DNA of 64,000 nt from Thermoanaerobaculia bacterium (GCA_963719225.1 CAVRAY010000001.1:1280001-1344000), one strand, 5' to 3'; shown: positions 19,332 through 62,524, numbered from the stretch's first letter. Notes: generated by a model not told the origin, from the sequence alone. Numbers and translations are program-made.

Positions 19332-20447
19332 TCAGCGCGGGCGTTCCTGCCACGCCGCGAGCACCTTCAGGAGCAGACCGCCGTGGGCGCGCCGGGAGAT
19401 CTGGCCCGGAGAGAGGAGGGAAATCCTGCTCGGAAGGGGAGGGACCCTCGGGCCTCGCCGTGCCCCTGCGGGCTGGTGGCGAAGCGAAGGCACGGGTGAT
19501 TTTTCTTTGAAGGTGAATAGGGAAACCACATAGCGCCGATCCAATACCGAGTGGCGAAGCGTGGCCACCGGCTCGAGCGCGATGGTTTCTCGGCGCGCGG
19601 TTCGTTTCCACCCCCTTCTAAGAACATTTGCAGGCCGTTCCCCGTGGCGAACCTCGAACATCGGAACGCAAAGGTGACCCTTGACGAGGGTCTTGTCTTC
19701 TACGAGCAAAATCTTCTTTCCCCTCTCGACGATTCCCGCGACGAGATGAATGGATCTGGGCTTCGCCCGTCTCGGGGCCCGCGGGAAGCCTTCCGGCTTC
19801 CCGCTCGCCGCGGCCCTGCAAAGTGTCCGCAGCGGGCAGGCACCGCAGCGCGGCGCGCGAGGCGTGCAGACGAGAGCCCCGAGCTCCATCGAGGCCTGGT
19901 TGTAGCCGCCGGAATCCCTCGCGGGAACCAGAGCCTGCGCGAGAGCGCGCACTTTCGCGAGAGTCCCAGGCGCTTTCGGATCCAGCCTCAGCCCATGCAG
20001 CCGGCAGAGAACGCGCACGACGTTGCCGTCCACGACCGCGGCGCGAGCCCCGAAGGCGATAGACGCCACGGCCGCGCTCGTGTAGGGGCCGACGCCGGGC
20101 AGCTCGTGCCAGCCCTCGACGGTACGCGGAAACGCGCCGGCCGCCGCGATCATCCGTGCGGCGCGATGGAGGTTGCGCGCTCGGGCGTAATAGCCGAGGC
20201 CGCTCCACTCCGCGAGGACCGCGCGCTCGGGTGCCCGGGCGAGCGCATCCACCGTCGGGAAACGCTCCAGGAATCGCGTCCAGCGTCTCTCGACGACCTC
20301 GACGGTCGTTTGCTGGAGCATGATCTCGGAAATCCAGATTCCGTAGGGGTCGCGCGTCCTTCGCCACGGCAGATCGCGGCGCTCGCGCCGGTACCAGCGC
20401 GTGAGGCGCCGGGCGATGGCGCGCGAAGGGAAAGGGATGGAATCCAC
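19332..20447 (-). CDS. mutY: A/G-specific adenine glycosylase MutY
   Basis: DPYGIWISEIMLQQT, GLGYYARARNLH, LPGVGPYT, VDGNVVRV, CTPRAPRCGACPLRTLC Fe-S cluster. Confidence 0.93.
   Translation of the reverse strand: MDSIPFPSRAIARRLTRWYRRERRDLPWRRTRDPYGIWISEIMLQQTTVEVVERRWTRFLERFPTVDALARAPERAVLAEWSGLGYYARARNLHRAARMIAAAGAFPRTVEGWHELPGVGPYTSAAVASIAFGARAAVVDGNVVRVLCRLHGLRLDPKAPGTLAKVRALAQALVPARDSGGYNQASMELGALVCTPRAPRCGACPLRTLCRAAASGKPEGFPRAPRRAKPRSIHLVAGIVERGKKILLVEDKTLVKGHLCVPMFEVRHGERPANVLRRGWKRTARRETIALEPVATLRHSVLDRRYVVSLFTFKEKSPVPSLRHQPAGARRGPRVPPLPSRISLLSPGQISRRAHGGLLLKVLAAWQERPR
19499..19629. repeat. Paired AT-rich motif (convergent copies) inside mutY
   Basis: ATTTTTCTTTGAAGGTGAATAG ... TTCCACCCCCTTCTAAGAACAT. 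Confidence 0.65.
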
Positions 20448-20467
20448 GGAGATACGATACCCGCCCG

Positions 20468-20887
20468 ATGGAGCTCGACTGGGAAGGCCTGGCGGTCGCG
20501 TTCGCGGCCCGCTCGATGCTGATGAACCACTTCCTCGACCGCGCGACGGGCGAAGTGCACGCGCATCTGAACGGCTCGCCCGAGCTCCGCGAGGCGCTGC
20601 TCCACGAAAGGAGCGGGCGTTACCTCCGCATCCCGAAGTCGACGAAGGACGTCGACACCGCCCGGTGCCGCGCGTTCGCTCCGCGGATGGAGAGCGCCGA
20701 AGCCCGCGAAAAGGCGCTTCTCGCGCTCGAGTCGGGCGGCCCCGGCGGCTTCCGCGACGTGCTCCTGACTTTCCCGAACGACGAGAAGGCCTGGTTCGTG
20801 TTCCGCGACCGGCGCGTGCGCGAAGAGCTGAAGGCCTGGCTCGAAGCGGAGGGCATCCGACTCGACGAAGGGCGTTCGGCGAGCTGA
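20468..20887 (+). CDS. UPF0158-family protein
   Basis: HFLDRATGEV...RYLRIP...FRDVL...WFVFR...WLEAEGI pattern. Confidence 0.7.
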   Translation: MELDWEGLAVAFAARSMLMNHFLDRATGEVHAHLNGSPELREALLHERSGRYLRIPKSTKDVDTARCRAFAPRMESAEAREKALLALESGGPGGFRDVLLTFPNDEKAWFVFRDRRVREELKAWLEAEGIRLDEGRSAS

Positions 20888-20909
20888 TCGTCGCGGGCCG
20901 GGGCGGCCG

Positions 20910-21575: not shown

Positions 21576-21576
21576 G

Positions 21577-24830: not shown

Positions 24831-25409
24831 GTGCCGCTCGGCTCGTCCTTCTACGGTCTCCTCACGAAGCGCGTCGGGCGGGCGCGCCTTTCCGCGGCGC
24901 TCCCGCACGTGCCTCCCGGGGCGCGCGTCCTCGACGTCGGATGCGGCCTGACCGACCTCCCCGACCGGATCGCGGACTACGTCGGCTGCGACCGCAACGC
25001 CGAAGTGCTGGCGTCCCGGAGGGGGAGATGGCCGAAGAAGGATTTTTTCGAATGGGACATCGGCCGAGGCCCGGCTCCGCCCGAGCTCGAGGCGAGGGCG
25101 CCTTTCGAAGGGATTCTCCTTCTCGCCGTCCTCGAACACGTCGCGGACCCGGCGGCGATCCTGTCCCGCCTCTCTTCTCTTCTTTCTCGCGGCGGATGTC
25201 TGATCGTCACCACCCCGCACCCGGCGGGTCGCTGGGCGCTCGAGGCCGGGGCCGCGCTCCGCCTCCTCTCCACGCACGCCCGGGACGAGCACGAGAGCCT
25301 CCTCGGGCGCACGGCCCTCGAGGAGGCAGGCCGGTCGGCCGGAATCTCCCTCGTCCTCTACCGGCGTTTCCTCTTCGGCCTGAACCAGCTGGCGGTGTTC
25401 TCCCGGTGA
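24831..25409 (+). CDS. Class I SAM-dependent methyltransferase
   Basis: [22 protein letters not shown]. Confidence 0.82.
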
Positions 25410-28342
25410 GCCGGGCGCGTCCCGTTTCGCGCGCCGCGTCCGCGATCACGGTCGTGAACGCGCGCACCCACAACCTCAAGAACGTGACGTGCGCTTTTCC
25501 GGTCGGCGCGCTCACGGTCGTGACCGGTCCTTCCGGCTCGGGGAAGTCGTCGCTCGCGTTCGACACGCTCTACGCCGAGGGCCAGCGCCGGTTCGTGGAG
25601 TCGATGTCCACGTACGCTCGGCAGTACCTCGAAAGGCTCGAGCGCCCGGACGTGGACCTCATCGAGCACGTCCTGCCCGCGCTCGCGATCGAGCAGAAGG
25701 CTCCCGCGCGATCGGCGCGTTCCACGGTCGGGACGGCGACCGAGATCCACGACGTCCTGCGGCTCCTCTTCGCGGCCGCCGGCACGCTGCGGTGCGCCGA
25801 CGACGGGACACTCGTTCGCCGCCACACCGTCGAAGGGATAAGGGACATTCTGCTTTCGGAGTGGGGCGAGGGCGCGCGGGTGCTCGTGATCGCGCCGCGA
25901 AAAGTCCAGTCGTTCGAGGCCGAGAGCGCAGAGTGGAGAAGACTCGGTTTTTTCCGCTATGTCTCCGCTTCGGGGGACGTTCTGGAAATTTCTTCGAATG
26001 GAAAAGAGACGGAGAAAGCGGCCGCGCCGCTTGCGGCCTTCCCGCTGCTCGTGGGGCGCCACGTGCTTGCGGCCTCCGATCCGGAAATCCTCTCTTCACT
26101 TTCAATGGCATTCGACGCCGGAGACGGTGAGCTTCTTGTGCTGAAATTCGGAGGGGGTCTTGCCTCGGCCCGCCGCTTCCGCCGCGGCCTCGTGTGCGAC
26201 GTGTGCGGGCGGCGCTTCACTGATCCGGTTCCCGCGCTCTTCTCCTTCAACTCGCCTCGAGGCGCGTGCGAGACGTGCCAGGGTTTCGGTCGTGTGACGG
26301 GCATCGACGCGGCACGCGTCATCCCCGACCCGGCGAAGTCGCTCCGAGAGCGGCCGATCGCGCCGTTCAACTCGCCGGCCTACGAGAGCGCCTACGACGA
26401 CCTGAAGGTGGTCTCGCGGCGCCACAAGCTGCGCTGGGACGTGCCGTGGAACGAGCTGACGCCGCGCGAGCGGGACGTCGTCTGGAAGGGTTCGGGCGAC
26501 TGGTATGGGGTCGAAGGTCTCTTCAAGTACCTCGAAAAGAAGCGGTACAAGGTGCACGTGAGGGTCCTCCTGTCGCGCTATCGCGGCTATACGCCGTGTC
26601 CCTCCTGCGGCGGGGCGCGCCTGAGAAGCGAGGCGCTCGCGGTGACGCTCTCCGGCAAGACGATCGCCCAGGTCGCAGCCCTCACGCTCGACGAGCTCCT
26701 CGTCTTTCTGGCCGGCGCTCTTCCCGGCGGCGAGGAGCGCGCGCGGGGAGCGTCGCTCGTCGAGGACCTCCGGCGTCGCGTCGGAACGCTCGTCGAGATC
26801 GGCCTCGGGTACCTCACGCTTTCGCGGACGATGCGGACGCTCTCGGGCGGTGAGGCCCAGCGGATCCAGCTCGGCGCGGCGATCGGGAACGCTCTCACCG
26901 GCACTCTCTACGTGCTCGACGAGCCCACGGTCGGCCTCCATCCGCGCGACACGCACCGGCTCCTCGGCGTCCTCGAGCGCCTCGCGGCCGGCGGAAACGC
27001 CGTCGTCGCCGTCGAGCACGACACGGACGTCATCCGCGCGGCCGACCACGTCATCGACCTCGGGCCGGGCGCGGGAGCACGCGGCGGGCGCCTCGTGTTC
27101 GAGGGGACGCCGGGGGAGCTGGAGAAGGCGGACACGCTCACGGGGAGGTCGCTGAGGAGGGAGACCGAAGAAAGAGAAGAAATTTTTGCTTCGGAAAGGG
27201 AAAGAGACGGCAAGCCGTATCGGCCAGGCGCTCCGAGCGAACTCATCGCAGCCGAAACGTCGCGCGCCTTCGGCGCTTTCTTAGAAGGGGGTATGAGGTC
27301 TGCGGCGCTCGAGCCGGGCACCGAAGCGATCCGTGTCCTCGGCGCGCGAGCAAACAATCTTCAAAATATTTCCGTCGACTTTCCCCTTCACCAGCTCGTC
27401 GCGGTGTCCGGAGTGTCGGGCTCGGGGAAGTCGTCGCTCGTCGTGGACGTGCTCGCGGCGGGTGCCCGGCAGCGCATGGGGAAGGGGCTTCTCCCCGGCG
27501 TGGACGAGGTGGGCGCCCACGACGCGATCGAGGGGCTCGACCGCGTCGCCGAGGTCATTCTCGTCGACCAGTCTCCGCTCGGGCGCTCGTCCCGCTCGAA
27601 CGCGGCGACGTACACGAAAGCCTGGGACGAGATCCGGACGCTCCTCGCCCGCGCGGGCTCCGCGAAGGCGCGCGGCCTCGAAAAGGGCGCGTTCAGCTTC
27701 AACGCTCCCGGCGGGAGGTGCGAGCGCTGCGAGGGGGCGGGCGTCGTCACCGTGGACATGCAGTTCCTCGCCGACGTGACGGTCGTGTGCGACGTGTGCG
27801 ACGGGCGCAGGTTCAAGCCCGAGGTGCTCGAGGTGAGGCTCAGAGGGCGGAACGTCGACGAGCTCCTCGCCACCACCGTCGACGAAGCGCGCGAGCTCTT
27901 CGCCGACGTACGGGTGATCTCGGACCGGCTCCAGCCGCTCGCGGAAGCCGGGCTCTCCTACCTGACCCTCGGTCAGTCCACCGGAACGCTCTCGGGCGGC
28001 GAAGCCCAGCGGCTGAAGATCGCGTCGTTCCTCAGGGGCGGGGGGCCCGACGAGCCGGTTCTGTTCATCTTCGACGAGCCGACGACCGGACTGGCGCCTT
28101 CCGACGTGGACGTGCTCCTCGCGGTCTTCCGGCGCCTCCTCGCGGCGGGTCATTCGATCGTTGCCGTGGAGCACCACACGGGTTTTCTCGCCCGCGCCGA
28201 CACCCTGATCGAGCTCGGGCCCGGTGGCGGCCCCGCGGGCGGCCGCATCCTGTTTTCAGGCCCTCCGGCGGCTCTCGCGGCTCTCGGCGGAACTCCGACG
28301 GCCGACGCGCTCCGGGGCCGGGTACAATTTCCGTCACGGTGA
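25406..28342 (+). CDS. uvrA: Excinuclease ABC subunit A (UvrA-family paralog)
   Basis: Two ABC modules (GPSGSGKSS and GVSGSGKSS; LSGGEAQR twice), Zn fingers, [10 protein letters not shown]. Confidence 0.92.
25986..26105. repeat. AT-rich motif plus partial inverted copy inside uvrA
   Basis: AAATTTCTTCGAATGGAAAAGAG ... CTCTTCACTTTCAA. Confidence 0.55.
27172..27298 (+). repeat. Two direct copies of the AT-rich motif in the uvrA inter-ABC linker
   Basis: AGAAATTTTTGCTTCGGAAAGGGAAAGAG and TTTCTTAGAAGGGGGTATGAGG. Confidence 0.55.
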
Positions 28343-29556
28343 CGAACGAGGTCTTCCGGTATGTGCTCTCGGCGGAGGGCCGTGAAATCGACCTTCTGGA
28401 CGGCGAGGCGACGCTGGGCCGCAGCCGGACCTCGACGGTGCGCCTCGAGCACGAGTCCGTTTCGCGCTCGCACGCGCTCCTCACGCTGAACCGCGGAGAG
28501 GCGATCGTCAAGGACCTCAACTCCTCCAACGGTACCTACGTGGGAGGGAAGAGGATCTCGCGCGAGACACGGCTTCAGAGCGGCGACCGCGTCCAGCTGG
28601 GCGCTGCGGTCATCGATCTCAAGATCATTGCGCCGAGCGTGCCCTCGGAGCGCACGGCGATGCTCGGGGCCGACGCGCTCCCGTCCCAGGCGCCCGCGCC
28701 GGCGCCGGACCCGCCTTCGGGCATAGCCTTCGACCAGGCTCCCGGCGTCACAAACCCGGGCGCGGTCGCCGCGCCGCCTGCCGCTGGCGCGCCGGATCCG
28801 ATGTCGGCCTCGGAGCTTTTCCGGGAGGTGGACAAGAAAGGTGTCGCGCCCCCGCGCGCGGGTTCGGGCTTCCGGGAGGCTTTCCCCGCGGCGCTTCGGC
28901 CACCAGACGACGTGTCGACTGTTGCTCCTCCGCCCGGCTCCGTCCCCGACCTCGAGGCGCCCTTCGTCTCGGCGGTCGCCCCCCGGGAGCTGGCGGACCT
29001 TTCCATCCAGATGAGCGCGACGCAGGCTCCTCCCCGCCCGCCGTCTCTCGAGCGGGTGGTCGCCTTTCGGGAAAGGCGGGCTCCGTCGCTCAACGAAGCC
29101 CCCCGCAATGCCGCGAATCCCTTCGCGCGCCTCCTCGCGGCGCTCGTCGACGCCGTGATCCTCACGGCCATCAACCTCCTCCTGTTCGCGCCCGTCTTCC
29201 TCATCGATTATTTCCGCACCGAGCTCCAGACCCGCGACGCCGCGCCCGACTGGGCGTTCCGCGGCGTCACGGCTCTCTCGATCCTGCTCGCCGCTCTCGC
29301 GAACGCGCTCTACGTCGTCGGCGGCTGGGCCTGGCGCGGGCGCACGCCGGGCAAGTCCCTGCTCGGCCTCACCGTGGTCAAGCGCGGCGAGATCGGCGGG
29401 AGGGGCATCGGCTGGAAGGCGGCTCTCATCCGCGCGGTGGTCCTCGTGCTCGCGGGGATTCCGCTCGGCCTCGGATGGGTGTGGGCCTTCTTCGAGAAGG
29501 AGAAGCGCGCCTTCCAGGACCTCGCGGCCGGAACGTGGGTCGTGAGATCGCGCTGA
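28339..29556 (+). CDS. FHA domain + Pro-rich linker + RDD-family membrane protein
   Basis: LGRS...SVSRSHA...DLNSSNGTYV (FHA); RLLAALVD...GRTPGK...QDLAAGTWVV (RDD). Confidence 0.85.
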   Translation: MTNEVFRYVLSAEGREIDLLDGEATLGRSRTSTVRLEHESVSRSHALLTLNRGEAIVKDLNSSNGTYVGGKRISRETRLQSGDRVQLGAAVIDLKIIAPSVPSERTAMLGADALPSQAPAPAPDPPSGIAFDQAPGVTNPGAVAAPPAAGAPDPMSASELFREVDKKGVAPPRAGSGFREAFPAALRPPDDVSTVAPPPGSVPDLEAPFVSAVAPRELADLSIQMSATQAPPRPPSLERVVAFRERRAPSLNEAPRNAANPFARLLAALVDAVILTAINLLLFAPVFLIDYFRTELQTRDAAPDWAFRGVTALSILLAALANALYVVGGWAWRGRTPGKSLLGLTVVKRGEIGGRGIGWKAALIRAVVLVLAGIPLGLGWVWAFFEKEKRAFQDLAAGTWVVRSR

Positions 29557-36454: not shown

Positions 36455-36504
36455 TATGGAGTGACCCGTCAAGTTCCGGATCGAGAGTTCTTTGAAAGAT
36501 CGAT

Positions 36505-36690
36505 GGCCAGCGGTCCTGAGGCTTAGATCGACGGCTGATCAGTCTGATATTCGAGGATCGAGCCGAAGCTCGCCTTCATGGTCAGGAACCGTCGGGAGCT
36601 GCCTCGGACTAGAGTCGCGGATCTGGGTTTGAGCCCTGCCGCATAGAAGTGTCGAGGGTTCTCCTTTCCGTCGCCCGTGGACCGCTGGCC
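36505..36690 (-). ncRNA. Putative bridge RNA / seekRNA of the IS1111-type element
   Basis: 12-bp closing stem GGCCAGCGGTCC/GGACCGCTGGCC enclosing two stem-internal-loop domains, one capped by a CGAGC-UUCG-GCUCG hairpin; loop segments match the target and donor junctions. Confidence 0.72.
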
Positions 36691-49858: not shown

Positions 49859-49871
49859 TAGAGGAAGAGAA

Positions 49872-49896
49872 GAATTTCTTAGAAGGGTAAGTAAGG
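49872..49896 (+). repeat. AT-rich motif, intergenic
   Basis: GAATTTCTTAGAAGGGTAAGTAAGG. Confidence 0.65.
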
Positions 49897-50016
49897 CGGG
49901 GGCGGCAGGAGACGCCCCGGCGATTCCAGCGGCTGCGCCCGCAAGAAAAGCACCCTTTCCCGAACCGGAGCAAAGCAGGTTTGTGAGATCCTGTCTCTTC
50001 GAGAGGGAAGCAGACA

Positions 50017-51918: not shown

Positions 51919-51940
51919 GAGGACCGGGAAAGACCAAAGA

Positions 51941-52030
51941 GTTTTTCTTAGAAGAGTGAGGAGGCTTCAGCGCGTTTCGTGCGCTCCGGCCGCGCCTCGC
52001 CGCAAATCCACTTTCTAAGAAATCTTTCTC
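51941..52030. repeat. Paired AT-rich motif, intergenic
   Basis: GTTTTTCTTAGAAGAGTGAGG ... TCCACTTTCTAAGAAATCTTTCTC. Confidence 0.72.
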
Positions 52031-52105: not shown

Positions 52106-52106
52106 C

Positions 52107-52580: not shown

Positions 52581-52629
52581 GACGGGGTAGGATCGCCTCC
52601 GAGCCACTGGGAACGGCGAGGAGGCTTCG

Positions 52630-54576
52630 TTGACAAGTTCGGGCCGGTCACTCCCGATTGTCGTCACCGTCGTCGCGCTCTCCGGCGTTGTTGGGCTGCC
52701 TTCCCGAGCGGCCACGAACAAGCCGCCGCTTCACGCGAAGAAGTGGCTCGCGATCACGGGCAAGCCGCTGGCCGCGACCGCGGGCGCGATGATCTTCCAG
52801 AAAGGCGGGAACGCCGTGGACGCGGCGGCCGCCATGATCGCCGCGACCGCCACGATGTGGGACACGCTGTCGTGGGGCGGCGAGACGCAGGCGCTGATCT
52901 ACAACCCGAAGACGGGCAAGGTCCTCGGCCTCAACGCGCTCGGCGTCGCGCCGACGGGAGCGACGCTGGAGTTCTTCAAGTCGAAGGGCATGCCGTATCC
53001 GCCCGAATACGGCCCGCTCGCCGCCGTCACACCCGGCACACCCGGGGGAATCATGGTCATGCTCGCCGAGTTCGGGAAGCTTTCGCTCGCCGAGGTCCTG
53101 GGGCCCGCGATCGAGATGGCCGACGGCTATCCCGTCGAGCAGCAGCACGTCTCGACGGCGTCGAGGCAGCGCGACTGGCTCCTGAAGTGGCCCGAGTCGC
53201 GGCGCGTCCTCCTGCCGCGTCCGGGCGACCAGCCGCCGCGGGCGGGGGAGATCTTCCGGCAGCCCGATCTCGCCGCGACGTTGCGGAAGCTCGTCGACGC
53301 CGAGAAGGAGGCGCTCGCGAAACGCAAGAGCCGGAAGGACGCGATCCTCGCGGCGTACGACCGCTTCTACAAGGGCGACATCGCGCAGGAGTTCGTGCGC
53401 GGCTCGCGCGAGGTCGGCGGCCTCCACACACTCGAGGACCTCGCGAAGTGGAAGGTCCGCATCGAGGAACCGGTGAAGACGACCTACAAGGGCATCGACG
53501 TCTACAAGCTCGACGTGTGGACGCAGGGTCCCGCGATGCTCCAGGCCCTGAACGTCCTCGAGGGCGTCGACCTCAAGGGAATGGGCTACAACAGTGCGCG
53601 CTACATCCACGCCCTCTATCAGGCGATGAGCCTCGCATTCGCGGACCGCGACTTCTACTACGGCGACCCATACTTCCCGCCCGCCGAACCCACGAAGGGC
53701 CTTCTCTCGAAGGAGTACGCGAAGAAGCGGGCAGCCACGATCGACTGGGCGAAGAACGATCCGAACGTGAAGCCCGGCGATCCGTACCCGTTCCAAGGAG
53801 AAGAGAATCCGTTCAAGATTTTCTTAGAAAGGTGGAAGACGACCCCGGCGCGCCGCGACGTCGCACCGGAATCCGCGACGCACCTCTCGCGCCACGAGGC
53901 TGGCCCGGCAGCGGCGGCCCAACTCTCGCGCCGCGACGCCGCCGCTTCCTCTTACCCATTCGAAGAATCTTCTTTTCCCTCCGACTCTTTCTTCGCCGGG
54001 ACGACCTCTGTCGAGGCGGCGGACGCGGAGGGATGGGTCGTCTCCGTCACTCCGTCGGGCGGCTGGCTGCCGGCGGTCATCGCAGGGAAGACCGGCATCG
54101 GCATGAGCCAGCGCATGCAGAGCTTCGTCCTTGACGGCGCGGACGGCCCCTTCAACGTTCTCGAGCCCGGCAAGCACCCGCGCGTGACGCTCACGCCGAC
54201 GCTCGCGCTGAAGGACGGCAGGCCGTACCTCTGCTTTTCGGTCCAGGGCGGCGACTCGCAGGATCAGAACCTCCTCCAGTTCTTCCTGAACGTCGTGGAG
54301 TTCGGAATGACGGTCCAGGAAGCCACCGAGGCGGCGAACGTCAACAGCTACCAGATGAGGAGCTCGTTCGGCGCGCACGAGTCGCGCCCGGGCGCGATGA
54401 TGATCCACGCCTCTCTTCCCGCCTGGGTGCGCGGCGAGCTCACGCGGATGGGCTACAAGCTCGAGCCCCACGCGAAGACCTCCGGGCCCATCAACGCGAT
54501 CTATCTCGACCGCGAGCACGGCACGATGTGGGGCGGGTCGAGCGACCACGGGGAGGACTACGGGATCGGGTGGTGA
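52630..54576 (+). CDS. ggt: Gamma-glutamyltransferase family protein
   Basis: GGNAVDAA, FYKGDIA, FADRD, autocleavage GTTSV, PGKHPRVTLTP. Confidence 0.9.
   Translation: MTSSGRSLPIVVTVVALSGVVGLPSRAATNKPPLHAKKWLAITGKPLAATAGAMIFQKGGNAVDAAAAMIAATATMWDTLSWGGETQALIYNPKTGKVLGLNALGVAPTGATLEFFKSKGMPYPPEYGPLAAVTPGTPGGIMVMLAEFGKLSLAEVLGPAIEMADGYPVEQQHVSTASRQRDWLLKWPESRRVLLPRPGDQPPRAGEIFRQPDLAATLRKLVDAEKEALAKRKSRKDAILAAYDRFYKGDIAQEFVRGSREVGGLHTLEDLAKWKVRIEEPVKTTYKGIDVYKLDVWTQGPAMLQALNVLEGVDLKGMGYNSARYIHALYQAMSLAFADRDFYYGDPYFPPAEPTKGLLSKEYAKKRAATIDWAKNDPNVKPGDPYPFQGEENPFKIFLERWKTTPARRDVAPESATHLSRHEAGPAAAAQLSRRDAAASSYPFEESSFPSDSFFAGTTSVEAADAEGWVVSVTPSGGWLPAVIAGKTGIGMSQRMQSFVLDGADGPFNVLEPGKHPRVTLTPTLALKDGRPYLCFSVQGGDSQDQNLLQFFLNVVEFGMTVQEATEAANVNSYQMRSSFGAHESRPGAMMIHASLPAWVRGELTRMGYKLEPHAKTSGPINAIYLDREHGTMWGGSSDHGEDYGIGW
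53817..53980. repeat. Paired AT-rich motif inside ggt
   Basis: GATTTTCTTAGAAAGGTGGAAG ... CCTCTTACCCATTCGAAGAATCTTC. Confidence 0.72.
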
Positions 54577-54905
54577 GGTTGCGGCCTCGGCCGCCAGCGG
54601 AAGGCCTCTAGGTTGATGACGCCCTTTCGGTCGAATCGAACGCCTTCGCGCTTCAGGATCAGCCGCTGGAGGACGTCGTGACCGGAACCATTTCTCCTGA
54701 GGCTGATCGTGCCCTTTGCGTTCACGACGCGCTGCCACGGCACGCGGCTCCCTTCGTGGAGCGCGTTGAGGGCGTAGCCGACGAGGCGCGCGTGGCTTGG
54801 AAGGCCCGCGAGGCGCGCAACCTGGCCGTACGTTGCGACGCGGCCGCGCGGAATCCGCAAGACGACGGCGTAGATCGCGGGGTAGGAGCTCGCAGCAGGC
54901 GTCAT
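54558..54905 (-). CDS. Alkyltransferase-like (ATL/YbaZ) MGMT-family protein
   Basis: IPRGRVATYGQVA, ARLVG, PWQRVV (Trp replaces the catalytic Cys). Confidence 0.88.
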   Translation of the reverse strand: MTPAASSYPAIYAVVLRIPRGRVATYGQVARLAGLPSHARLVGYALNALHEGSRVPWQRVVNAKGTISLRRNGSGHDVLQRLILKREGVRFDRKGVINLEAFRWRPRPQPHHPIP

Positions 54906-55363: not shown

Positions 55364-57411
55364 CAGATGCTCGGTCTCTCCCCTTCCGCGCGGCGCATCG
55401 GCGTCCCCTCGGCGCACCCGAACGCGTCGTAGAACTCCGGCAGGTTGGAGGTCGGGCCGATCGCCCGCCACTTGCCGGGGCTGTGCGGATTCGTGTTGAG
55501 CTGGACGCGAAGCGCCTCTTCGCGCGACTGGTTGCGCCAGATCGTCGCGAACGAGAGGAAGAAGCGCTGCTCGGGCGTAAAGCCGTCGATCGCGGTGCGC
55601 GGTTTTCCCTCGAGGGCCTTCTGGAGCGCCGCGTAGGCGATCTTGATGCCGCCGAGATCGCCGATGTTCTCGCCGAGCGTGAGCTTCCCGTTGATGGCCT
55701 GGTCGGCGAGCGGCTTGTATCCGTCGAACTGCTTCACGACGAGCGCCGTGCGGGAGTCGTAGGCTTTCCGGTCCTCGGCCGTCCACCAGTTCTTGAGGTT
55801 GCCGTCCGCGTCGTACTGGCTGCCTGAGTCGTCGAACCCGTGGGACATCTCGTGGCCGATGACGACGCCGATGCCGCCGTAGTTCACCGCGTCGTCGGCG
55901 TCCTCGGAGAAGAAAGGAGGCTGGAGGATGCCCGCCGGGAAGACGATCTCGTTCATCGTGGAGCTGTAGTACGCGTTGACCGTCGGGGGCGACATGTTCC
56001 ACTCCGTCCGGTCGATGGGCTTGCCGAGCTTCGCGAGGTTGCGTTTCGTCTCGAAGGTGCGGGCGTTCCTCACGTTCTCGGCGTACGACGCACGGGAGAT
56101 CGCGAGGGACGAGTAGTCCTTCCACTTGTCGGGATAACCGATCTTCACGTTGAAGGCGGCGAGCTTTCTCTGTGCCTGCTTCTTCGTTTCGGCGCTCATC
56201 CACGGCAGCGCGTCGATCCGCTCCTCGAGCGCGGCGCGCAGGTTCTCGACGAGGACGCGCATCCTCTCCTTCGCACGCGGGCTGAAAGCGCGCGCCACGT
56301 AGAGAGGCCCCAGAGCCTCGCCGAGCGCCTGGTCCGTCGCGGCCTGGACGCGCCTCCAACGCGGCTCCTGCTCCGGGACGCCCATCAGAGTCTTGCCGCT
56401 GAACGCGAAGGCCTCCTCCTGGAAGGCCTTCGAAAGGTACGGCGCCGCCTGGCGGAGGACGTGCCACCTCAGGTATGTCCGCCAGGTCTCCGCGGGAACG
56501 GTGCGCGAAAGCTCTCCGAACGCGACGAAGAAGCGCGGTTGCCGGACGTTGACCTCCGTGGCAGAGGAGGTGCCGAGGTCCGTGAAGAAGCGCGGAAAGT
56601 CGAAGCCGGGGGCTTCGGAGGCCAGCGCCGCGAGCGTCCTCTTGTTGTAGGTCTTCTGGGGGTCGCGATTCTCGACGCGCGTGAGCGCGGGCTCCGCGAG
56701 CTTGGTCTCGAGCGCCATGACGACGTCGGCGGACGCTTTCGCCTTTTCGGGAGAGGCGCCGGAGAGCTCGAACATCTTCGCGACGTGGACCCGATAGGCG
56801 TCGCGGAGGCCTTTCGACTTCGGATCTTCCTTCGTGTAGTAATCGCGGTCGGGAAGGCCGAGGCCGCCCTGGCCGAGGATGCCGATGTACCGCGTGCTCT
56901 CGCGGGCGTCCTGGCCGACGCGGAAGTTGAATCCGACCTCGAGACCCCGGGCGTGGAGGTCCGCGAGCACCACGGGAAGGTCGGCAGGGGTTTTCAGCTT
57001 GTCGATCTCGGCGAAAAGGGGCGCGAGGGGCTTCGTCCCCGCTTTCTCGATCGCAGCCTCGTCCATCCCGGCGGCGTAGAAGTCGCCGACTTTCTGCTCG
57101 TTCGATCCCTTCGGCCAATCGGTCTTCGCCGAAGTCTTCTCGAGGATCTTCTTCAGGATCTCGCGATTGCGGTCCGAGAGCTCCTGGAATCCGCCGTAGC
57201 TGGCGCGGTCGGCCGGGATGGGATGTGCTTTCAGCCAGGAGCCGTTCGCGTATTGGTAGAAGTCGTCGCACGGCTTGACGGACGTATCGAAGTTCGCGGA
57301 ATCGATCGGCTTCGGCTTCGCGGGCGCGGCGGGCTGGGCGTTCGCGGCGGCCGGGACGGCGAGAAGGGCGAGGGCGAGCACGGCTCTACGAATGGACACG
57401 GGGACCTCCAT
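55360..57411 (-). CDS. M13-family metallopeptidase (PepO/neprilysin-like)
   Basis: PCDDFYQYANG, VNAYY, HEMSH, GENIGD, PHSP. Confidence 0.94.
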   Translation of the reverse strand: MEVPVSIRRAVLALALLAVPAAANAQPAAPAKPKPIDSANFDTSVKPCDDFYQYANGSWLKAHPIPADRASYGGFQELSDRNREILKKILEKTSAKTDWPKGSNEQKVGDFYAAGMDEAAIEKAGTKPLAPLFAEIDKLKTPADLPVVLADLHARGLEVGFNFRVGQDARESTRYIGILGQGGLGLPDRDYYTKEDPKSKGLRDAYRVHVAKMFELSGASPEKAKASADVVMALETKLAEPALTRVENRDPQKTYNKRTLAALASEAPGFDFPRFFTDLGTSSATEVNVRQPRFFVAFGELSRTVPAETWRTYLRWHVLRQAAPYLSKAFQEEAFAFSGKTLMGVPEQEPRWRRVQAATDQALGEALGPLYVARAFSPRAKERMRVLVENLRAALEERIDALPWMSAETKKQAQRKLAAFNVKIGYPDKWKDYSSLAISRASYAENVRNARTFETKRNLAKLGKPIDRTEWNMSPPTVNAYYSSTMNEIVFPAGILQPPFFSEDADDAVNYGGIGVVIGHEMSHGFDDSGSQYDADGNLKNWWTAEDRKAYDSRTALVVKQFDGYKPLADQAINGKLTLGENIGDLGGIKIAYAALQKALEGKPRTAIDGFTPEQRFFLSFATIWRNQSREEALRVQLNTNPHSPGKWRAIGPTSNLPEFYDAFGCAEGTPMRRAEGERPSIW

Positions 57412-57452
57412 GAGCGGATCTTACGAATTTCGGGGCAAGACGAACGCCCGGG

Positions 57453-59918
57453 CTATGCCAGCGAAGCCTGACGCGAGTCGCGCGCGCGGCGCACGAGGGC
57501 CACGAGGCCGCCCGCCATCATCACGTAGAAGCCTCCCCACACGAGGGAGATGAGGGGCTTCGTCGTCAGGTCGACGGAGAGCGTCTCGCCGGTCGCGGGC
57601 TTGAGGTCTCCTCCCGGCGCGACGCCGAGGAGCTCGATCTCGCAGATGCCTTCGTTCGGCGACACCTTGAGGAGCTTCAGGCGGCCCTTTCCGGGGAGGG
57701 CCGTCTCGGGCGACTCCGAGGCCGATTCCGCATTCGCCCCGCCGAAGTACATCACGAGCCGGGCGGTCTTCTCCTCGGAAGCCTCTGCGGTCGTCACGAG
57801 GAAATTGCCGGTCACGGTGACGTGCGGCCGCGCCGACGCGACCTGCGAGCGGTCGGCGGAAAAGTCGAGGAACTTCACCTTCACGCCCTCGACGGTCTTC
57901 GACTCGCCCTTCTTCAGGGCGAGCGTCGTGCCCTCGATGCGCGCGGACCGGCCCGGATCGTAGGCCTGGGGCGAGACGTAGAGGTCCATCAGCGGCGACG
58001 ACTTCACGTCGGGATTCGCCATCATCTGGTTCGTGCGCGTGTTCGTGTAGAGCTTCGGATATGCCTTCCAGACGCTCCGTCCGGGAGACGACACCTCGAC
58101 CTCCATGGCCTGCTTGGCGCGGCGGTCGGAGAGGTCCAACGAGTTGAGCTCTTCGAAGCGCTTCACGTCGCCGCTGTCCGTGACGAACACGGTGCGCGTG
58201 AACGTCAGGGTGTTGCGACCGACGCTGACGGGCTGGTTCCTGAGGAGGTTCACGGTCGTCCTCTTCTCGTAGACGCCCGAGATGAGGATGCCCACGAGCA
58301 TGATCGACATGCCGATGTGCGCGAGGTACCCGCCCATGGTCTTGACGGCCTTGCGCCTCACGAAGAGGACCGCGGTCTCGACGTTCGCGACGAAGCCGGC
58401 CACGGCGAGACCGAGGATCAGAAGGTCCCCCGTACCGCGTACGCCGGCCGCGAAGAAGACCCCGATGCCGAGGAGGCCCACGACGCCCGGGACGAGCGCC
58501 TTCCTGAGGACACCCTTGCCGCTCTCGCCGCGCCAGGATAGATACGGAACGAGAAGGAGGAGCAGGGCCATGAGCCCCGCGATCGGGCGATGCGTGACGT
58601 TGTAGAAGCTCGTGGCGACCTGCGAGGGCTTGCCCGCGATGCGCGTCAGGATCGGGGCCGAGGTCCCGAGCAGGATGACGAGGCCGGAGGCGCAAAAGAG
58701 CGTGACGGAGAGGATGAAGAGGACCGACCGCGACAGGAACGGCTCCTCTTTCTCCTTGCCGGTCGCCGCGTCCAAGTCGGAAACGACCGGGATCTCCTTC
58801 CAGCGCCACGCGAGGAGGCCGAGGCCGCCCACGAGGAAGACGAGGATGATCCCGACGAGCCAGCCCGTGATTCCGAGATCGATGAAGGAGTGGACGGAGA
58901 AGTCCGCGAGCACGCCGGAGCGCGTCAGGAACGTTCCGTAGAGGATGCAGCAGAAGGCGAGGATCGCGAGGATGATGTTGATCTTGCGGTGCTTTGCCCG
59001 CATCTTCTGAAGGAACATGCCGTGCACGAGCGCGACGGTCGCGAGCCACGGCACGAGCGACGTGTTCTCCACCGGGTCCCAGCCCCAGTAACCGCCCCAG
59101 CCGAGCGTCTTGTAGGCCCAGTACCCGCCCATGAGGATCGCGGTGCCGAGCGTGACGAACGTGAAGAGCGCCCAGGGCATCGCGCGGACGACCCACCCGT
59201 CCCAGCGCTTCATCCACAGAGCGCCGATCGCGAACGCGAACGGCACGGAGAGGGACGCGAAGCCGGAGAACATGACCGGCGGGTGGATGACCATCCACGG
59301 GTCCTGCAGGAGAGGGTTCAGTCCCTGGCCGTCGGCCGGGATCTGCGCGAGGAACCGGAACGGTGACTGCTTCACGAGGATCGCGACGATCCCGATGAAC
59401 GACGCGATGTAGACGATCATGACGGGAGCTTCCTGCTCCTTGGCGGATCTGAGGACGAAGAGCCCGATGAGGGAGCCCCAGAACAGCCACAGCAGGAACG
59501 AGCCTTCCTGCCCGGCCCAGAACGTGGAGAAGAGATAGTAGAAGGGAAGGTCACGCCCCGAATACGACGCCACGTACGAGATGCGGAAGTCATGCACGAG
59601 GAGGCGCGAGAGGAGCAGCACGGACGCGAGGACGATCGAGAACGTGAACGCGTAGTAGAGCCGCCGCGCGAAGAGGAGATTCTGAGAGAGAAGACTCGGA
59701 AGAGGACTTTCTTCGAATGGTAATAGGGCTGGGCCACCAGCCGTCGCGACTGCAGCGCCGGAGCTCCTCTTACCCTTTCTAAGAAAATCCCCGGCCGCGA
59801 ATCCCATACTGGGCATCGTTCGCAGGTACGCGAGCATGCACGTGAGTCCGAAGAGCAGCGCCGCCCAGATCGCGAGCGTGCCTGGCGCGAAGCCAAGAAG
59901 GCCGGGGAGATTGTTCAT
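57453..59918 (-). CDS. ccmF: Cytochrome c biogenesis protein CcmF
   Basis: WAGQEGS, GLNPLLQ, IHPP, WGGYWGWDPVEN, LTRSG..SVHSF. Confidence 0.92.
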   Translation of the reverse strand: MNNLPGLLGFAPGTLAIWAALLFGLTCMLAYLRTMPSMGFAAGDFLRKGKRSSGAAVATAGGPALLPFEESPLPSLLSQNLLFARRLYYAFTFSIVLASVLLLSRLLVHDFRISYVASYSGRDLPFYYLFSTFWAGQEGSFLLWLFWGSLIGLFVLRSAKEQEAPVMIVYIASFIGIVAILVKQSPFRFLAQIPADGQGLNPLLQDPWMVIHPPVMFSGFASLSVPFAFAIGALWMKRWDGWVVRAMPWALFTFVTLGTAILMGGYWAYKTLGWGGYWGWDPVENTSLVPWLATVALVHGMFLQKMRAKHRKINIILAILAFCCILYGTFLTRSGVLADFSVHSFIDLGITGWLVGIILVFLVGGLGLLAWRWKEIPVVSDLDAATGKEKEEPFLSRSVLFILSVTLFCASGLVILLGTSAPILTRIAGKPSQVATSFYNVTHRPIAGLMALLLLLVPYLSWRGESGKGVLRKALVPGVVGLLGIGVFFAAGVRGTGDLLILGLAVAGFVANVETAVLFVRRKAVKTMGGYLAHIGMSIMLVGILISGVYEKRTTVNLLRNQPVSVGRNTLTFTRTVFVTDSGDVKRFEELNSLDLSDRRAKQAMEVEVSSPGRSVWKAYPKLYTNTRTNQMMANPDVKSSPLMDLYVSPQAYDPGRSARIEGTTLALKKGESKTVEGVKVKFLDFSADRSQVASARPHVTVTGNFLVTTAEASEEKTARLVMYFGGANAESASESPETALPGKGRLKLLKVSPNEGICEIELLGVAPGGDLKPATGETLSVDLTTKPLISLVWGGFYVMMAGGLVALVRRARDSRQASLA
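59705..59789. repeat. Paired AT-rich motif inside ccmF
   Basis: ACTTTCTTCGAATGGTAATAGG ... CTCTTACCCTTTCTAAGAAAATC. Confidence 0.75.
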
Positions 59919-59927
59919 GGGGTGACC

Positions 59928-60326
59928 TCAGGCCTTCTTGGCGCCGTACTGTTTTTCGATTTCCTCGCCCTGGTACTTGGACGGACACTTGACGAGAAGC
60001 TTCTCGGCGGCGAAGACCCCGGCGTCGTAACGGCCGATGGCCACGATCGACACGGCGTCCTCGAAATTCGCGGGCTTCACGTCGGTGTAGGAGACGGGGA
60101 TCGACTCCTTGGTCTTCTCGTCGTAGAGCGTGAAGAAGAGCGTCTTCGTGCTCGTTTCGTAGCGCGTCGAGCCCTTTTGGAGAGCGCCCATCACCTGCAC
60201 GGTGCGCGGCGCGGCTTTCGCCTCGGCGAAGGAGACGTAAGGCGTCATCGAGCGGGTGAACGTCGAAAGGCCAAGGGCGAGGAAGCCGAGGACGAGGATG
60301 GCGCCGGCCCAGTACGCGCGTTTCAT
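59928..60326 (-). CDS. ccmE: Heme chaperone CcmE, CxxxY variant
   Basis: N-terminal TM; LLVKCPSKY. Confidence 0.88.
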   Translation of the reverse strand: MKRAYWAGAILVLGFLALGLSTFTRSMTPYVSFAEAKAAPRTVQVMGALQKGSTRYETSTKTLFFTLYDEKTKESIPVSYTDVKPANFEDAVSIVAIGRYDAGVFAAEKLLVKCPSKYQGEEIEKQYGAKKA

Positions 60327-60451
60327 CGGGGTTTCTCCTGCCCGGGCCCGGAGGCCGCCCGGACCTTGCGGTCGAGGTAGACGAGATAGCCGAAGATTCC
60401 GGCCCAGATCACGATGTTGACCGCCGCGACGTAGCCGAGAGCCCCGCTCAT
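60323..60451 (-). CDS. ccmD: CcmD-like small membrane protein
   Basis: MSGALGYVAAVNIVIWAGIFGYLVYLDRKVR..., coupled by ATGA overlaps to ccmC and ccmE; absent from the ORF track. Confidence 0.8.
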   Translation of the reverse strand: MSGALGYVAAVNIVIWAGIFGYLVYLDRKVRAASGPGQEKPR

Positions 60452-61119
60452 GCCGCCCTTTCACGGACGATGCGGGACACGCGCCGATCGAGATTCCACA
60501 TCCAGAAGAACAAGATCATGAATGCCACCATGGAGGAGAAGAAAACGGCTCGGATGTCCGCGGACATTTCGACCTTGCCGCGGACGTTGAGGACGGTGTC
60601 GGGGTGGAGCGACTGGTACATGCGGGGGACGGCGAAGGTCAGGAACGGCACGGTCACGACTGCGACGAGAGCGTACGCCGCCGAGAGCGTCGCGCGCCGC
60701 TCGGGGTCCTCGAGCGCGCCGCGCAGCCCGAGGTACGCGCCGTAGACGAGGAGAAGAAGCACGATGGACGTCTCGCGCGGGTCCCAGTTCCAGTACGAGT
60801 TCCACATCACGCGGGCGAAGATCGAGCCGGTGACCGTGGCCAGGACGCAGAACACGAAGCCGAGGCGCGCCGCGCCTGCCGCGGCGTCGTCGCTCTCGAT
60901 CCGGCGCTTCCTCAGATAGACGGCCGAGTGCCATGCGGCGAGGAAAAACGCGAGGGTCGAGACCCAGGCCATGGGCACGTGGAAAAAGACGATCCGAGAG
61001 GACTCGCCGACGAAGCTCTGGGCGGGGCGGGCCCACAGAAAAGCGGCCCAGCAAATGACGGCCATCCCAAGTCCCAGGAGTGCTTTGAGGAAGAAACCAA
61101 GGCCCTTCACGTGAGGCAT
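60448..61119 (-). CDS. ccmC: Heme exporter CcmC
   Basis: FFHVPMAW, WNSYWNWDPRET, SLHP. Confidence 0.9.
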   Translation of the reverse strand: MPHVKGLGFFLKALLGLGMAVICWAAFLWARPAQSFVGESSRIVFFHVPMAWVSTLAFFLAAWHSAVYLRKRRIESDDAAAGAARLGFVFCVLATVTGSIFARVMWNSYWNWDPRETSIVLLLLVYGAYLGLRGALEDPERRATLSAAYALVAVVTVPFLTFAVPRMYQSLHPDTVLNVRGKVEMSADIRAVFFSSMVAFMILFFWMWNLDRRVSRIVRERAA

Positions 61120-61199
61120 GATACTGCCGAGTCGAGAATCGTTCTCTAAAGCAGGCGAATCAGGTTTCGTCCGGTCGAAAAGAGGTCCCGAGGGCCGAT

Positions 61200-61901
61200 T
61201 CACTCCCGCCAGACGGCGTCGAAGAGCAGGAACGCGGCCGTCGTGACGACGCCGTCGTAGGCCACGAGGAGGCGCACGAAGTCGACTCCGGCCGAGAATT
61301 CCGGCTGCGTGGCGGCGACCCGTGTCGCGAGCACGGCGCCGACGAGTGGCGGCAGGAGGAGCGGGATCGCCAGAACGGCGAAGAGCGCTCCCTTGGCGCT
61401 CGCCTTCGAGACGAGCGCGGCCGTGAACGTGGAGGCCGAGGCGAGGCCGAACGTTCCGAGCACGAGAAGGACCACGAAGAGCGCCGGATCCTTGATCTCG
61501 AACCCCATGAGGACGACGAAGAGCGGCACGATGAAGATCGTCACGGCGCCGAGGAGCGCCACGTTCGCGAGCAGCTTTCCGAGGAGGACGCCGGGCGGCG
61601 GCGCCGACAGCCGGAGAGCCGCGGCCGTCCCCGCGTCCTCTTCGTGGACGAATGTGCGCGAAAGGCCCGTCATCGCCGAGAAGAACAGGACGATCCAGAG
61701 AAGGACGGCGTTCACGGTGGGCCGGTCTTCCGGGGAGAGGCGTGTCGGGCCCACCGCGTAGGCGACGAGGACGAGGACGGCGAAGGCGAAGAGGAAGAGC
61801 GAGTTCACGGCCACGCGCGTCCGCCACTCCGCGAGGAGCTCCCGCCGGAACACGGCGAGGGCCGCCGGGAGGACGGCCGCGGATTTGTGCGGCGCGCTCA
61901 C
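61200..61901 (-). CDS. ccmB: Heme exporter CcmB
   Basis: FRRELLAEWR, FVHEEDAGT, GKLLAN, IPLLLP. Confidence 0.87.
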   Translation of the reverse strand: MSAPHKSAAVLPAALAVFRRELLAEWRTRVAVNSLFLFAFAVLVLVAYAVGPTRLSPEDRPTVNAVLLWIVLFFSAMTGLSRTFVHEEDAGTAAALRLSAPPPGVLLGKLLANVALLGAVTIFIVPLFVVLMGFEIKDPALFVVLLVLGTFGLASASTFTAALVSKASAKGALFAVLAIPLLLPPLVGAVLATRVAATQPEFSAGVDFVRLLVAYDGVVTTAAFLLFDAVWRE

Positions 61902-62524
61902 GAGAGCGTCACGCGTTCGTCCGAGAGCGCCAGGTCTCGCGGGTCGTTCGATGCGATCACGGTGATTCCCCGGAGCCGCTGGGAGGTCACGACCTTCTCC
62001 ACGATGGAGCGGCCCGCCTCGTCCAGGTTCGCGCCCGGCTCGTCGAGGAGCAGCAGGTCGGGCTCGTGCAGCGTCGCGAACGCGAGCTTGACGCGCTGGC
62101 GCTGGCCCGTGGAGAGAGAGGAAAGAGATTTCTTCGAGTATGAAGATTCGGGCAGGCCGACCTCCGCGAGAAGCGCCTTCGCGATGGCCGGCCCGCCCAC
62201 CCGACCTCTTACTTTTTCGAAGAAAATCAGGTTCTCTTCGGCCGTCAACTCGCCATACAGAGAAAGATCGGGGGCGCACCACCCGATGCTGGGCATCACG
62301 TCGCGCGGCTCGTGCCCGCCGGCAGACTCTTCACCTTCCAAGAAAATCTTCGTGCTTCCTCCGCTCGGTCGCAGCAACCCCGCCAGGACCTTGAGGAGCG
62401 TCGTCTTTCCGCTCCCGTTCTCTCCCGCGACGCCGAGGACGTGTCCCTTCTCGACGCGGAACGAGACCGGCCCGAAGGCGCGGCGCCCGAAGGATCGCGA
62501 GAGGTTCTCGGCGACGAGGCGCAT
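61898..62524 (-). CDS. ccmA: Heme ABC exporter ATPase CcmA
   Basis: GENGSGKT, LTAEENL, LSTGQRQR, LLDEP; operon context. Confidence 0.87.
   Translation of the reverse strand: MRLVAENLSRSFGRRAFGPVSFRVEKGHVLGVAGENGSGKTTLLKVLAGLLRPSGGSTKIFLEGEESAGGHEPRDVMPSIGWCAPDLSLYGELTAEENLIFFEKVRGRVGGPAIAKALLAEVGLPESSYSKKSLSSLSTGQRQRVKLAFATLHEPDLLLLDEPGANLDEAGRSIVEKVVTSQRLRGITVIASNDPRDLALSDERVTLS
62127..62351. repeat. Three copies of the AT-rich motif inside ccmA
   Basis: GATTTCTTCGAGTATGAAG; CCTCTTACTTTTTCGAAGAAAATC; CTCTTCACCTTCCAAGAAAATC. Confidence 0.72.

Follow-up and report, generated by a model that had tools for sequence, protein, structure and literature searches.

We analyzed a stretch of 64,000 nucleotides from a Thermoanaerobaculia bacterium (GCA_963719225.1; this whole stretch is hereafter called the window), which corresponds to C1:1280001-1344000 in a genome of 4.75 Mb assembled into two contigs (C1 and C2) with a GC-content of 68% (labeled G000; other genomes carry labels of the same form). 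Between positions 19,332 and 62,524, a dispersed DNA motif recurs inside and between unrelated genes, mostly as convergent pairs. The names given to these genes in a preliminary description, made from the sequence alone, agree with their Pfam domains: HhH-GPD and 4Fe-4S (mutY), methyltransferase, UvrA, GGT (ggt), CcmF, and an ABC ATPase beside CcmB (ccmA). The core consensus of the motif is R-rich-ATTTCTT[A/C]GAAG-(G)TGAAG/GTAAGAGG. Its logo displays a purine-rich and C-poor lead-in of ~40 bp, followed by (A/T)TTTCTT[A/C]GAA(G/A/T)G and by ~12 purine-rich bases (GTGAAG, GTAAGAGG).

The sequence TTTCTTMGAA, with at most one mismatch, was found 20 times in the window (palindromic cores may be counted on both strands) relative to 3.35 ± 1.91 expected from 100 shuffles, none of which reached 20, confirming that the motif is enriched. 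The described sequence is present at all 17 places where the preliminary description had listed a copy, and 15 of these copies stand as core sites. Thirteen of them score 23.4-39.0 bits on a matrix trained on the whole genome (19499, 19627, 25988, 49874, 51941, 52024, 53817, 53970, 59707, 59789, 62127, 62229 and 62351) and two score 16-18 bits (25041 and 27277). The 27178 copy, scoring 17.7 bits as a core and 33.5 bits as a weaker outer box, is better assigned to the latter. This box B (R-rich-ATT[T/C]TTGCT-TCGGA/CCCTC) lies outside the core in the same orientation. The 26105 copy is a decayed core (3.4 bits), and three weak copies had been overlooked (29480, 36480 and 59672; 11.6-15.8 bits). 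The 49874 and 51941/52024 copies are located between genes. The sites of the window are given below; X1 and X2 are two sequencing runs, contigs of which (from a close relative) were compared with positions 44001-64000.

19412..19435, plus strand: outer box B in mutY (21.9 bits), 79 bp outside the core
19495..19523, plus strand: core site A, left arm, in mutY (gene at 19332-20447, minus strand), 34.5 bits
19604..19632, minus strand: core site A, right arm, in mutY (23.4 bits); arm centers 113 bp apart
19700..19723, minus strand: outer box B in mutY (23.6 bits), 87 bp outside, closing the layout B>A..<A<B
25036..25064, plus strand: core site A in the methyltransferase gene (16.4 bits), common to all 5 aligned relatives and adjoining an exchange tract (g1127)
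25836..25859, plus strand: possible outer box B in uvrA (18.3 bits), 142 bp outside the core
25982..26010, plus strand: core site A in uvrA (gene at 25406-28342, plus strand), 34.8 bits
26089..26117, minus strand: decayed right arm in uvrA (3.4 bits); G013 and G019 have an intact minus-strand site 88 columns from the left arm
27172..27195, plus strand: outer box B in uvrA (the 27178 copy), 33.5 bits as B, 94 bp outside the core
27270..27298, plus strand: core site A in uvrA (17.7 bits); partner 92 columns further, intact in G003, G013, G017 and G019
29480..29508, plus strand: weak core site in an FHA/RDD gene (11.6 bits)
36480..36508, plus strand: weak intergenic core site (15.8 bits)
49868..49896, plus strand: intergenic core site (the 49874 copy), 39.0 bits; in the X1 and X2 contigs 111 other letters replace 49863-49963
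49939..49962, minus strand: decayed, weak partner of the preceding site (12.1 bits on the B matrix)
51937..52029: intergenic convergent pair (51937-51965, plus; 52001-52029, minus), centers 68 bp apart; not in G017 and G019; 20 letters instead in the X1 and X2 contigs
53813..53975: convergent pair in ggt (53813-53841, plus; 53947-53975, minus), 138 bp; length differs in 4/4 aligned relatives; an X1 contig skips the pair
59672..59793: weak outer copy (59672-59700, plus) and convergent pair (59701-59729, plus; 59765-59793, minus; 68 bp) in ccmF; in-frame insertion relative to outgroup G032; 59700-59783 missing from an X1 contig
62122..62352: three cores in ccmA (62122-62150, plus; 62204-62232, minus; 62324-62352, minus), forming pairs of 86 and 206 bp with one arm in common
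62100..62420, minus strand: approximate exchanged tract in ccmA (gene at 61898-62524), not closest to the clade of its flanks

The motif was said to force rare codons on the genes that it overlaps. Indeed, TTA is 106-fold over-represented in motif footprints (AGA 19-fold, ATT 8-fold, AAA 7-fold and GTA 4-fold): the footprints represent 0.37% of codons and contain 71 of the 251 TTA codons (28%) of the called genes. The stretch from 1 to 17 kb is motif-free, as had been noticed, with no core above 3 bits before position 19419; by itself this says little, because site-free gaps of 45-150 kb exist elsewhere in the genome. This site-free part (196-17558) encodes a 2873-aa GT2/GH94 cyclic glucan synthase, a sphingolipid desaturase-like gene, a bacterial topoisomerase IB, a superoxide dismutase, a ferritin-like protein and Ku. 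Elsewhere in the window, an IS110-family transposase (36722-37672, minus strand) has a weak motif copy ~230 bp from its 3' end.

Scanning the whole genome with the position weight matrix yielded 835 matches above 16 bits, compared with 4 after triplet shuffling and 13 after hexamer shuffling; block shuffles served as the null, the motif being nearly mirror-symmetric and the reversed genome unsuited as a control. Once palindromic double counts were merged, 833 sites were left (~1 site per 5.7 kb). The convergent pairing reported for the window holds genome-wide: 586 of the 833 sites (70%) have an opposite-strand site (> 16 bits) 25-300 bp away on their inner side and 12 on their outer side, while plus-minus neighbors were less than 300 bp apart in 269/296 cases against 7/296 for minus-plus neighbors. 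A single plus-minus pair of neighbors (1/296) is closer than 30 bp. The spacing between centers, mostly 65-200 bp, shows a steep onset at 65-70 bp, a peak at 75-79 bp, a second hump at 135-144 bp and a tail beyond 200 bp. We found no 10.5-bp helical phase in these spacings (Rayleigh statistic ≤ 1.1 at 10-11 bp) and a weak bias modulo 3 (96/84/75). Box B is positioned relative to the core as well, with 94 matches at -90 to -61 and 30 at -40 to -31, where ~1 per 10-bp bin is expected. Many cores thus have a box B ~35 or 70 bp further out, in the layout B>A..<A<B that is complete in mutY (19412-19723).

The sequences enclosed by the arms are GC-alternating and mostly unrelated to each other: the spacers of 284 pairs fall into 255 clusters, and no spacer motif was found in common (expectation-maximization score of 145, relative to 155 in flank controls). 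The largest cluster consists of 15 Ser/Thr kinase paralogues in which a 93-bp pair overwrites native sequence. About ten such paralogues form a tandem array (G000 C1:2293328-2319751), each with the 93-bp pair in its N-lobe and with poly-Ser tracts that expanded out of the outer flank. A second copy of ggt on C2 bears a homologous but shorter pair (C2:124274-124367; 93 bp relative to 138 bp at 53825-53963 of the window). Conservation had been placed at the DNA or RNA level. The DNA part of this claim stands, since sites occur in all six frames and on both replichore strands (409 vs. 424 sites, i.e., no bias). Selection for an RNA hairpin is not supported: the arms of a pair do not co-vary (inner arm identity of 0.405 vs. 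0.404 when permuted), their duplex energy shows no excess relative to arms of different pairs (-17.15 vs. -16.99 ± 0.22) and an Rfam search of the window gave no match.

Based on our gene calls (~4070 genes, 90% coding), 554 of the 833 sites are coding and distributed evenly along genes. The other 279 are non-coding, relative to ~10% of non-coding DNA; this share is an upper bound because the caller missed some genes, such as mutY. The density of sites in genes of native composition decreases threefold from 225/Mb at distances of up to 400 kb from dif (C1:2037584) to 60-83/Mb in the origin half. This gradient assumes that the two ends of C1 are joined by C2, as suggested by GC skew and by the location of parS and parAB on C2. 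The dif region itself (G000 C1:2037451-2039524) has a motif pair on either side of dif and an adjoining second parA/parB operon. Two ParB matches were found in most of 61 relatives, and this dif-linked ParAB2 may therefore be general in the order. A separate perfect parS is located at C2:333826, next to the main parAB.

The motif is conserved as a clade-specific DNA signal of one Thermoanaerobaculia genus, which belongs to the uncultured Acidobacteria of soil, and, thinly, of a sister genus. The exact 13-mer was found in 29/29 genomes of the genus and in 0/32 other genomes of the family and order. The negatives include one unpublished genome (G037), on which none of our conclusions relies. Among 161 genomes of the class, the pair pattern was detected in 13 genomes (2 of 68 genera): 11/11 of the genus, 2/2 of the sister genus g18 and 0/148 others. 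The two g18 genomes (G101 and G183) have 5 and 1 pairs, respectively, and the single-site pattern confirms G183 and not G101; g18 possibly represents an early or decaying stage of the motif. Of 80 loci listed from GTDB contigs (among at least 121), 77 have titles naming Acidobacteriota or Thermoanaerobaculia. Across 800 kb of four outgroups, the matrix returned 0-1 matches, and a search of 400 kb of G032 and G029 for k-mers and inverted pairs revealed no comparable motif that could be a dialect in sister genera. The TTGTGGCA repeats, considered as such a dialect, have a single orientation and codon-multiple spacings and are read as CxxCH cytochrome coding. Other families of the order have 7-bp tandem repeats arranged between genes in convergent arrays, of the GTGAGGC/GTAAGGC type (G041, L289-L298) and of the GTTGCGA type (G040, L299-L308); triple heptamer arrays were not found in G000.

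We compared the coding sites with four outgroup genomes (800 kb; kinases were excluded and 10 further sites lie beyond the aligned part). Of 52 sites, 26 correspond to a net insertion, 23 have the same length and 3 are shorter, relative to 13 insertions among 415 controls, and the local identity to the outgroup is 0.31 at sites compared with 0.66. These alignments show that sites occupy tolerant positions of proteins. In the kinases and in ccmA, the spacers are native coding sequence, in frame. Within the genus, the sites of G000 are largely present in five relatives (39/47, 18/20, 17/22, 32/38 and 37/46) and 75-100% are in common in most genome pairs; cores remain near consensus while spacers diverge. 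Pair regions also differ in length within the genus, through presence/absence indels of whole pairs (69-140 bp) and tandem growth of arms. Finally, a few pairs or arms are common to unrelated loci, a small excess over controls (9 vs. 2 matches; 17-23 vs. 2-6, some of which are leftover paralogues), and a handful of B-to-A linkers were copied between unrelated loci.

The sequences surrounding the pairs bear a strong imprint of exchange between species. Our analysis included 262 codon-aligned genes (C1 1.0-1.8 Mb only) of G000, G003, G013, G017, G019 and G020. In the first quartet of genomes, the proportion of discordant informative sites was 0.16 far from the motif and reached 0.29-0.50 in the interval between 120 bp outside and 250 bp inside. 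After masking of the motif columns, windows of 150 bp supporting a swapped topology represented 25/98 near sites and 36/1564 far from them. This excess was also observed when windows were matched on variability (3/16 vs. 5/569; 14/42 vs. 8/376; 8/39 vs. 10/190) and when the comparison was limited to the same genes (18/75 near vs. 4/137 far). Four other quartets gave 3/27 vs. 25/780 (weak), 8/25 vs. 10/726, 14/47 vs. 25/666 and 18/39 vs. 106/532. The associated P values are overstated because windows overlap and the genomes are kin. Swaps remained frequent where all four genomes possess the site (14/41, 5/18 and 7/12 vs. 36/1567, 25/661 and 11/732), which argues for a hot spot and not just for selection for site gain. 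A hidden Markov model identified tracts in 15/27 site-bearing and 12/132 site-free genes. These tracts are 34-742 bp long (mostly 100-450 bp), reach 50-180 bp outside the cores, sometimes lie entirely outside, and end at no fixed offsets. Such variable ends indicate homologous rather than site-specific recombination. Overall, according to these alignments, exchange between species was about ten times more frequent in the short DNA around the pairs than in other DNA. The spacers also present a higher AT-content at four-fold sites (0.18 vs. 0.11) and a higher divergence (0.33-0.43 vs. 0.30), suggesting extra mutation alongside exchange.

The ccmA gene is the sole locus that we analyzed in more than six genomes (44 sequences; 2 of 46 were left out for missing one gene). 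The window genome groups with L123-126 in the 5' and 3' parts of the gene (98/98 and 100/99) and with L136-138 in the middle (99/99), with switch points placed by sliding identity near nt 115-135 and 400-450. Eight ccmA sequences lacking the motif are nested in one clade by their flanks plus ccmB, yet their middle part stands beside the outgroups and encodes an outgroup-like protein. The remaining sequences of the genus, from three clades, have a motif-bearing middle in common, and the middle of the window's own ccmA falls with L263 (100) and a further clade. The position of the motif-less group therefore suggests that the motif allele spread rather than was lost, and a single origin followed by lateral spread is the simplest reading of the ccmA trees. 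An approximately unbiased (AU) test does not discriminate here, because the two halves of the ccmB control also reject each other's trees (159-221 log units, relative to 628 for the ccmA middle). In the contigs of the close relative, whose flanks are ~91-97% identical, 49863-49963, 51928-52041, 53813-53979 and 59700-59783 are skipped or replaced, where a skip at 90% likeness may be a diverged allele; the three best-supported joints among the 15 listed (of 80) all fall on sites. Sequencing runs matched at most 18% of the words.

How could a motif pair be associated with such exchanges? The reading that we favor, in which our confidence is evenly balanced, is that the motif constitutes an uptake-sequence-like drive signal acting on short DNA via transformation. 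Cells would preferentially import and recombine short fragments that bear a convergent pair, such that the signal would spread itself. The two-armed signal would probably act in uptake or retention during natural transformation. The advantage would belong to the incoming DNA instead of arising from breakage of the resident copy: a resident copy that is cut should lose the motif, yet the motif allele has spread, which favors an advantage of incoming DNA. A putative sequence-specific reader may hold both arms, plausibly on a U-bent duplex that places the inverted arms (and the B boxes) side by side; such a bend would explain the sharp spacing floor near 65-70 bp and the missing helical phase. 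In part of one study, DNA is proposed to kink while it is taken up by Haemophilus (PMC7811141). New sites would arise through partly illegitimate recombination together with point changes at tolerant places.

Type IV pilins, PilT-like ATPases, two ComEA-like proteins, ComEC and DprA are all encoded in the genome; transformation is thus available to the host, and equally so to its motif-free kin. No sequence-specific reader was found among the candidates tested, namely a histone fold, ParB2 and a two-domain ComEA-like protein. The archaeal-type histone fold (PF00808) was detected in 0/41 genomes and the dif-linked ParB2 is present across the order, motif-free relatives included. Synteny gaps relative to outgroups (~185 genes covered) revealed no convincing reader either. 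The secreted two-domain ComEA-like protein is the best candidate and consists of two HhH domains joined by a Ser/Lys/Ala linker of variable length, with domain starts 92-157 aa apart. Its gene was called at G000 C1:1007283-1007921, with a signal peptide predicted further upstream (C1:1007222-1007921; L309:220-920). It was rejected as an obligate reader: it was not found in the motif-rich genomes G009, G016 and G026 (96-99% complete), and homologues exist in the motif-free genomes G030, G035 and G039. Each of the seven copies of this gene that we viewed in the genus has three or four sites. A motif pair also immediately precedes the single-domain comEA and a FimT-like pilin gene (C2:230144-231488), and the comEC region has eight sites (C1:1874297-1877226).

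Several observations weigh against the uptake reading. ComEC was found in 58/61 relatives, with or without the motif, and the best reader candidate in just 24 of the 29 genomes of the genus. The threefold rise in density towards dif (225 vs. 60-83 sites/Mb) is not predicted by uptake alone, the AT-richer and more diverged four-fold sites of the spacers (0.18 vs. 0.11; 0.33-0.43 vs. 0.30) imply additional mutation, one quartet is weak (3/27 vs. 25/780) and 12 site-free genes bear tracts as well. The exchange analysis is itself bounded by overlapping windows and related genomes (its P values are too strong), by the undiscriminating AU test and by its coverage of C1 1.0-1.8 Mb only. Known uptake sequences also differ in their behavior. 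As described in sections of one study (PMC7811141), they act singly and a second uptake signal sequence (USS) within 100 bp gives no rise in uptake. The portions of another (PMC2397512) that treat DNA uptake sequences (DUS) describe their inverted pairs as terminators within 21 nt, and conversion fragments averaging 1.1-1.7 kb.

A first alternative retains the same drive at another step and seems unlikely to us: the pairs would mediate protection or processing after DNA release or entry, and not at the uptake pore, either through a nuclease-helicase stopped by the outward arm as at Chi, or through a wrapping protein shielding 150-400 bp. In the first case the enzyme could come in from both sides and a convergent pair would guard each end; in the second the wrapped DNA would escape decay. 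In both, no other fragments would last long enough to recombine. The convergent-only geometry without helical phase, the short tracts centered on pairs, the GC-alternating spacers and the ~70-bp units (box B at -61 to -90; spacing peaks at 75-79 and 135-144) would all suit such a mechanism. Unlike Chi, however, the motif lacks a leading-strand bias (409 vs. 424), tracts extend 50-180 bp beyond the cores or lie wholly outside them, and no archaeal-type histone fold was found in the 41 genomes searched. Pairs could instead be bound by a nucleoid- or terminus-organizing protein, akin to the chromosome-organizing or looping protein suggested in the preliminary description, and be kept by ordinary selection, with exchange, deletion and mutation as by-products of breakage, nicking or blocked repair. 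The density gradient centered on dif and the pair on each of its sides point in this direction, as do the age of the sites (75-100% in common to most genome pairs of the genus), the deletions and tandem arm growth, and the raised AT-content and divergence. We consider this explanation improbable: breaks in resident DNA should erode the sites, yet in ccmA the motif-bearing allele has reached three clades; spacings show no 10.5-bp phase; gaps of 100-150 kb are site-free; and the dif-linked second ParA/ParB is also present in motif-free relatives (two ParB matches in most of the 61 genomes).

The preliminary description had further proposed the termini of a decayed non-autonomous element comparable to the Rickettsia palindromic elements (RPE). 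We considered this option as an RPE-like element, a miniature inverted-repeat transposable element (MITE) or a dimer of repetitive extragenic palindromes (REP), inserted as a unit of 70-140 bp and since decayed. Part of this proposal agrees with our data: presence/absence indels of 69-140 bp affect several pairs, net insertions were found at 26/52 coding sites relative to 13/415 controls, and a few whole pairs or arms were copied to unrelated loci (9 vs. 2; 17-23 vs. 2-6, including some leftover paralogues). The remainder is difficult to reconcile with an element, which we hold to be very improbable. The 284 pairs contain 255 different spacers without a motif beyond control, 23/52 sites are overwrites of the same length, the spacers of the kinases and ccmA are native in-frame coding sequence, arms do not co-vary, and cores hold near consensus as spacers diverge. 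As for enzymes, Y1/RAYT was detected in 0/25 genus genomes at E ≤ 1e-12, a search that was positive in 9/16 other genomes, and some genomes of the genus have just two tyrosine recombinases (XerC/D-like), such that no third one is common to the genus.

The motif resembles DUS of Neisseriaceae and USS of Pasteurellaceae, the only two families for which sequence-selective uptake is described in the sections concerned of three works (PMC2397512; 10.1101/2025.10.24.684340; PMC7811141). According to parts of one of them (PMC2397512), DUS occupy permissive sites, are linked to conversion fragments and arise in many cases by recombination. Judged from parts of two of these works (PMC2397512; 10.1101/2025.10.24.684340), the likeness includes restriction to a lineage, hundreds of copies, a directional core with weaker flanks, occurrence in any frame and at tolerant places, intergenic enrichment, the link to recombination tracts and arrival by recombination. 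As with DUS and USS, the motif is over-represented in a single lineage (835 vs. 4-13 matches; 29/29 vs. 0/32 genomes), and its host possesses a type IV pilus competence machinery, one that is not specific to motif-bearing genomes. In contrast, the motif is unrelated to DUS and USS in sequence and phylum, 70% of its sites form convergent pairs spanning 25-300 bp inside genes (DUS pairs are terminator hairpins within 21 nt in the source portion cited above), and it is accompanied by a second outer box. Its tracts are mostly 100-450 bp long rather than the 1.1-1.7 kb given in the same portion, its density is ~1 site per 5.7 kb with a gradient towards the terminus, and no ComP-like reader was identified. 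We did not file the motif as a member of DUS/USS, because the rule of single copies fails and its role in uptake is putative.

Other known repeats match less closely. Chi, recognized by RecBCD or AddAB, is a polar recombination hot-spot motif with leading-strand bias, and a linear DNA piece carrying two copies in the proper orientation can be protected from either end. The present motif is likewise polar and marks recombination hot spots, but it is much longer, bipartite and arranged in close convergent pairs, without replichore bias (409 vs. 424) and with tracts well beyond the core. Sites such as matS (MatP), NBS (Noc) and parS (ParB) are single palindromes present in tens of copies with a bias in chromosome position; the motif is also dispersed with such a bias, but its density is graded (225 to 60-83 per Mb) and, unlike matS, it is not confined to the terminus. 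Rickettsia palindromic elements and the small dispersed repeats of cyanobacteria are tolerated inside proteins, often as in-frame insertions, as are many of our pairs; the latter have no conserved internal sequence or hairpin and half of the sites are overwrites. REP dimers (REPINs) are inverted dimers 20-100 bp apart, some of them inside open reading frames, as outlined in part of one report (PMC3733652). Although our pairs are similar in these respects, they present no GTAG/CGTC-tagged hairpin and no RAYT/Y1 (0/25), two thirds of the sites are coding (554/833) and spacers are often native. Our search of the literature, mostly of open papers, returned nothing that describes the motif.

Exchange of short core-gene fragments across species is common in bacteria, as reported in part of one study (PMC12615716), and its focus on a marked motif is unusual. 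We tentatively consider that the motif may be the third self-DNA signal to have evolved independently and the first to need a convergent pair and outer helper boxes, with a reader gripping a U-bent duplex or guarding both ends. If this paired signal is true, only cassettes of 100-450 bp would cross species borders, driving the signal through the core proteome of the genus, and several hundred gene segments would become a common, fast-turning pool of alleles. The motif supplies exact baits for a reader search, for which the sister genus g18, with few sites, is useful, and the drive-versus-selection question for uptake sequences becomes testable by population genomics. If the uptake reading is true, uptake-like drive evolves repeatedly, including in soil with short free DNA and in Acidobacteriota with another geometry. 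Whatever the reader, gene flow between these species is concentrated on a few hundred marked spots where conserved proteins are rewritten, and the gene trees and protein variants of the genus are distorted at predictable places.

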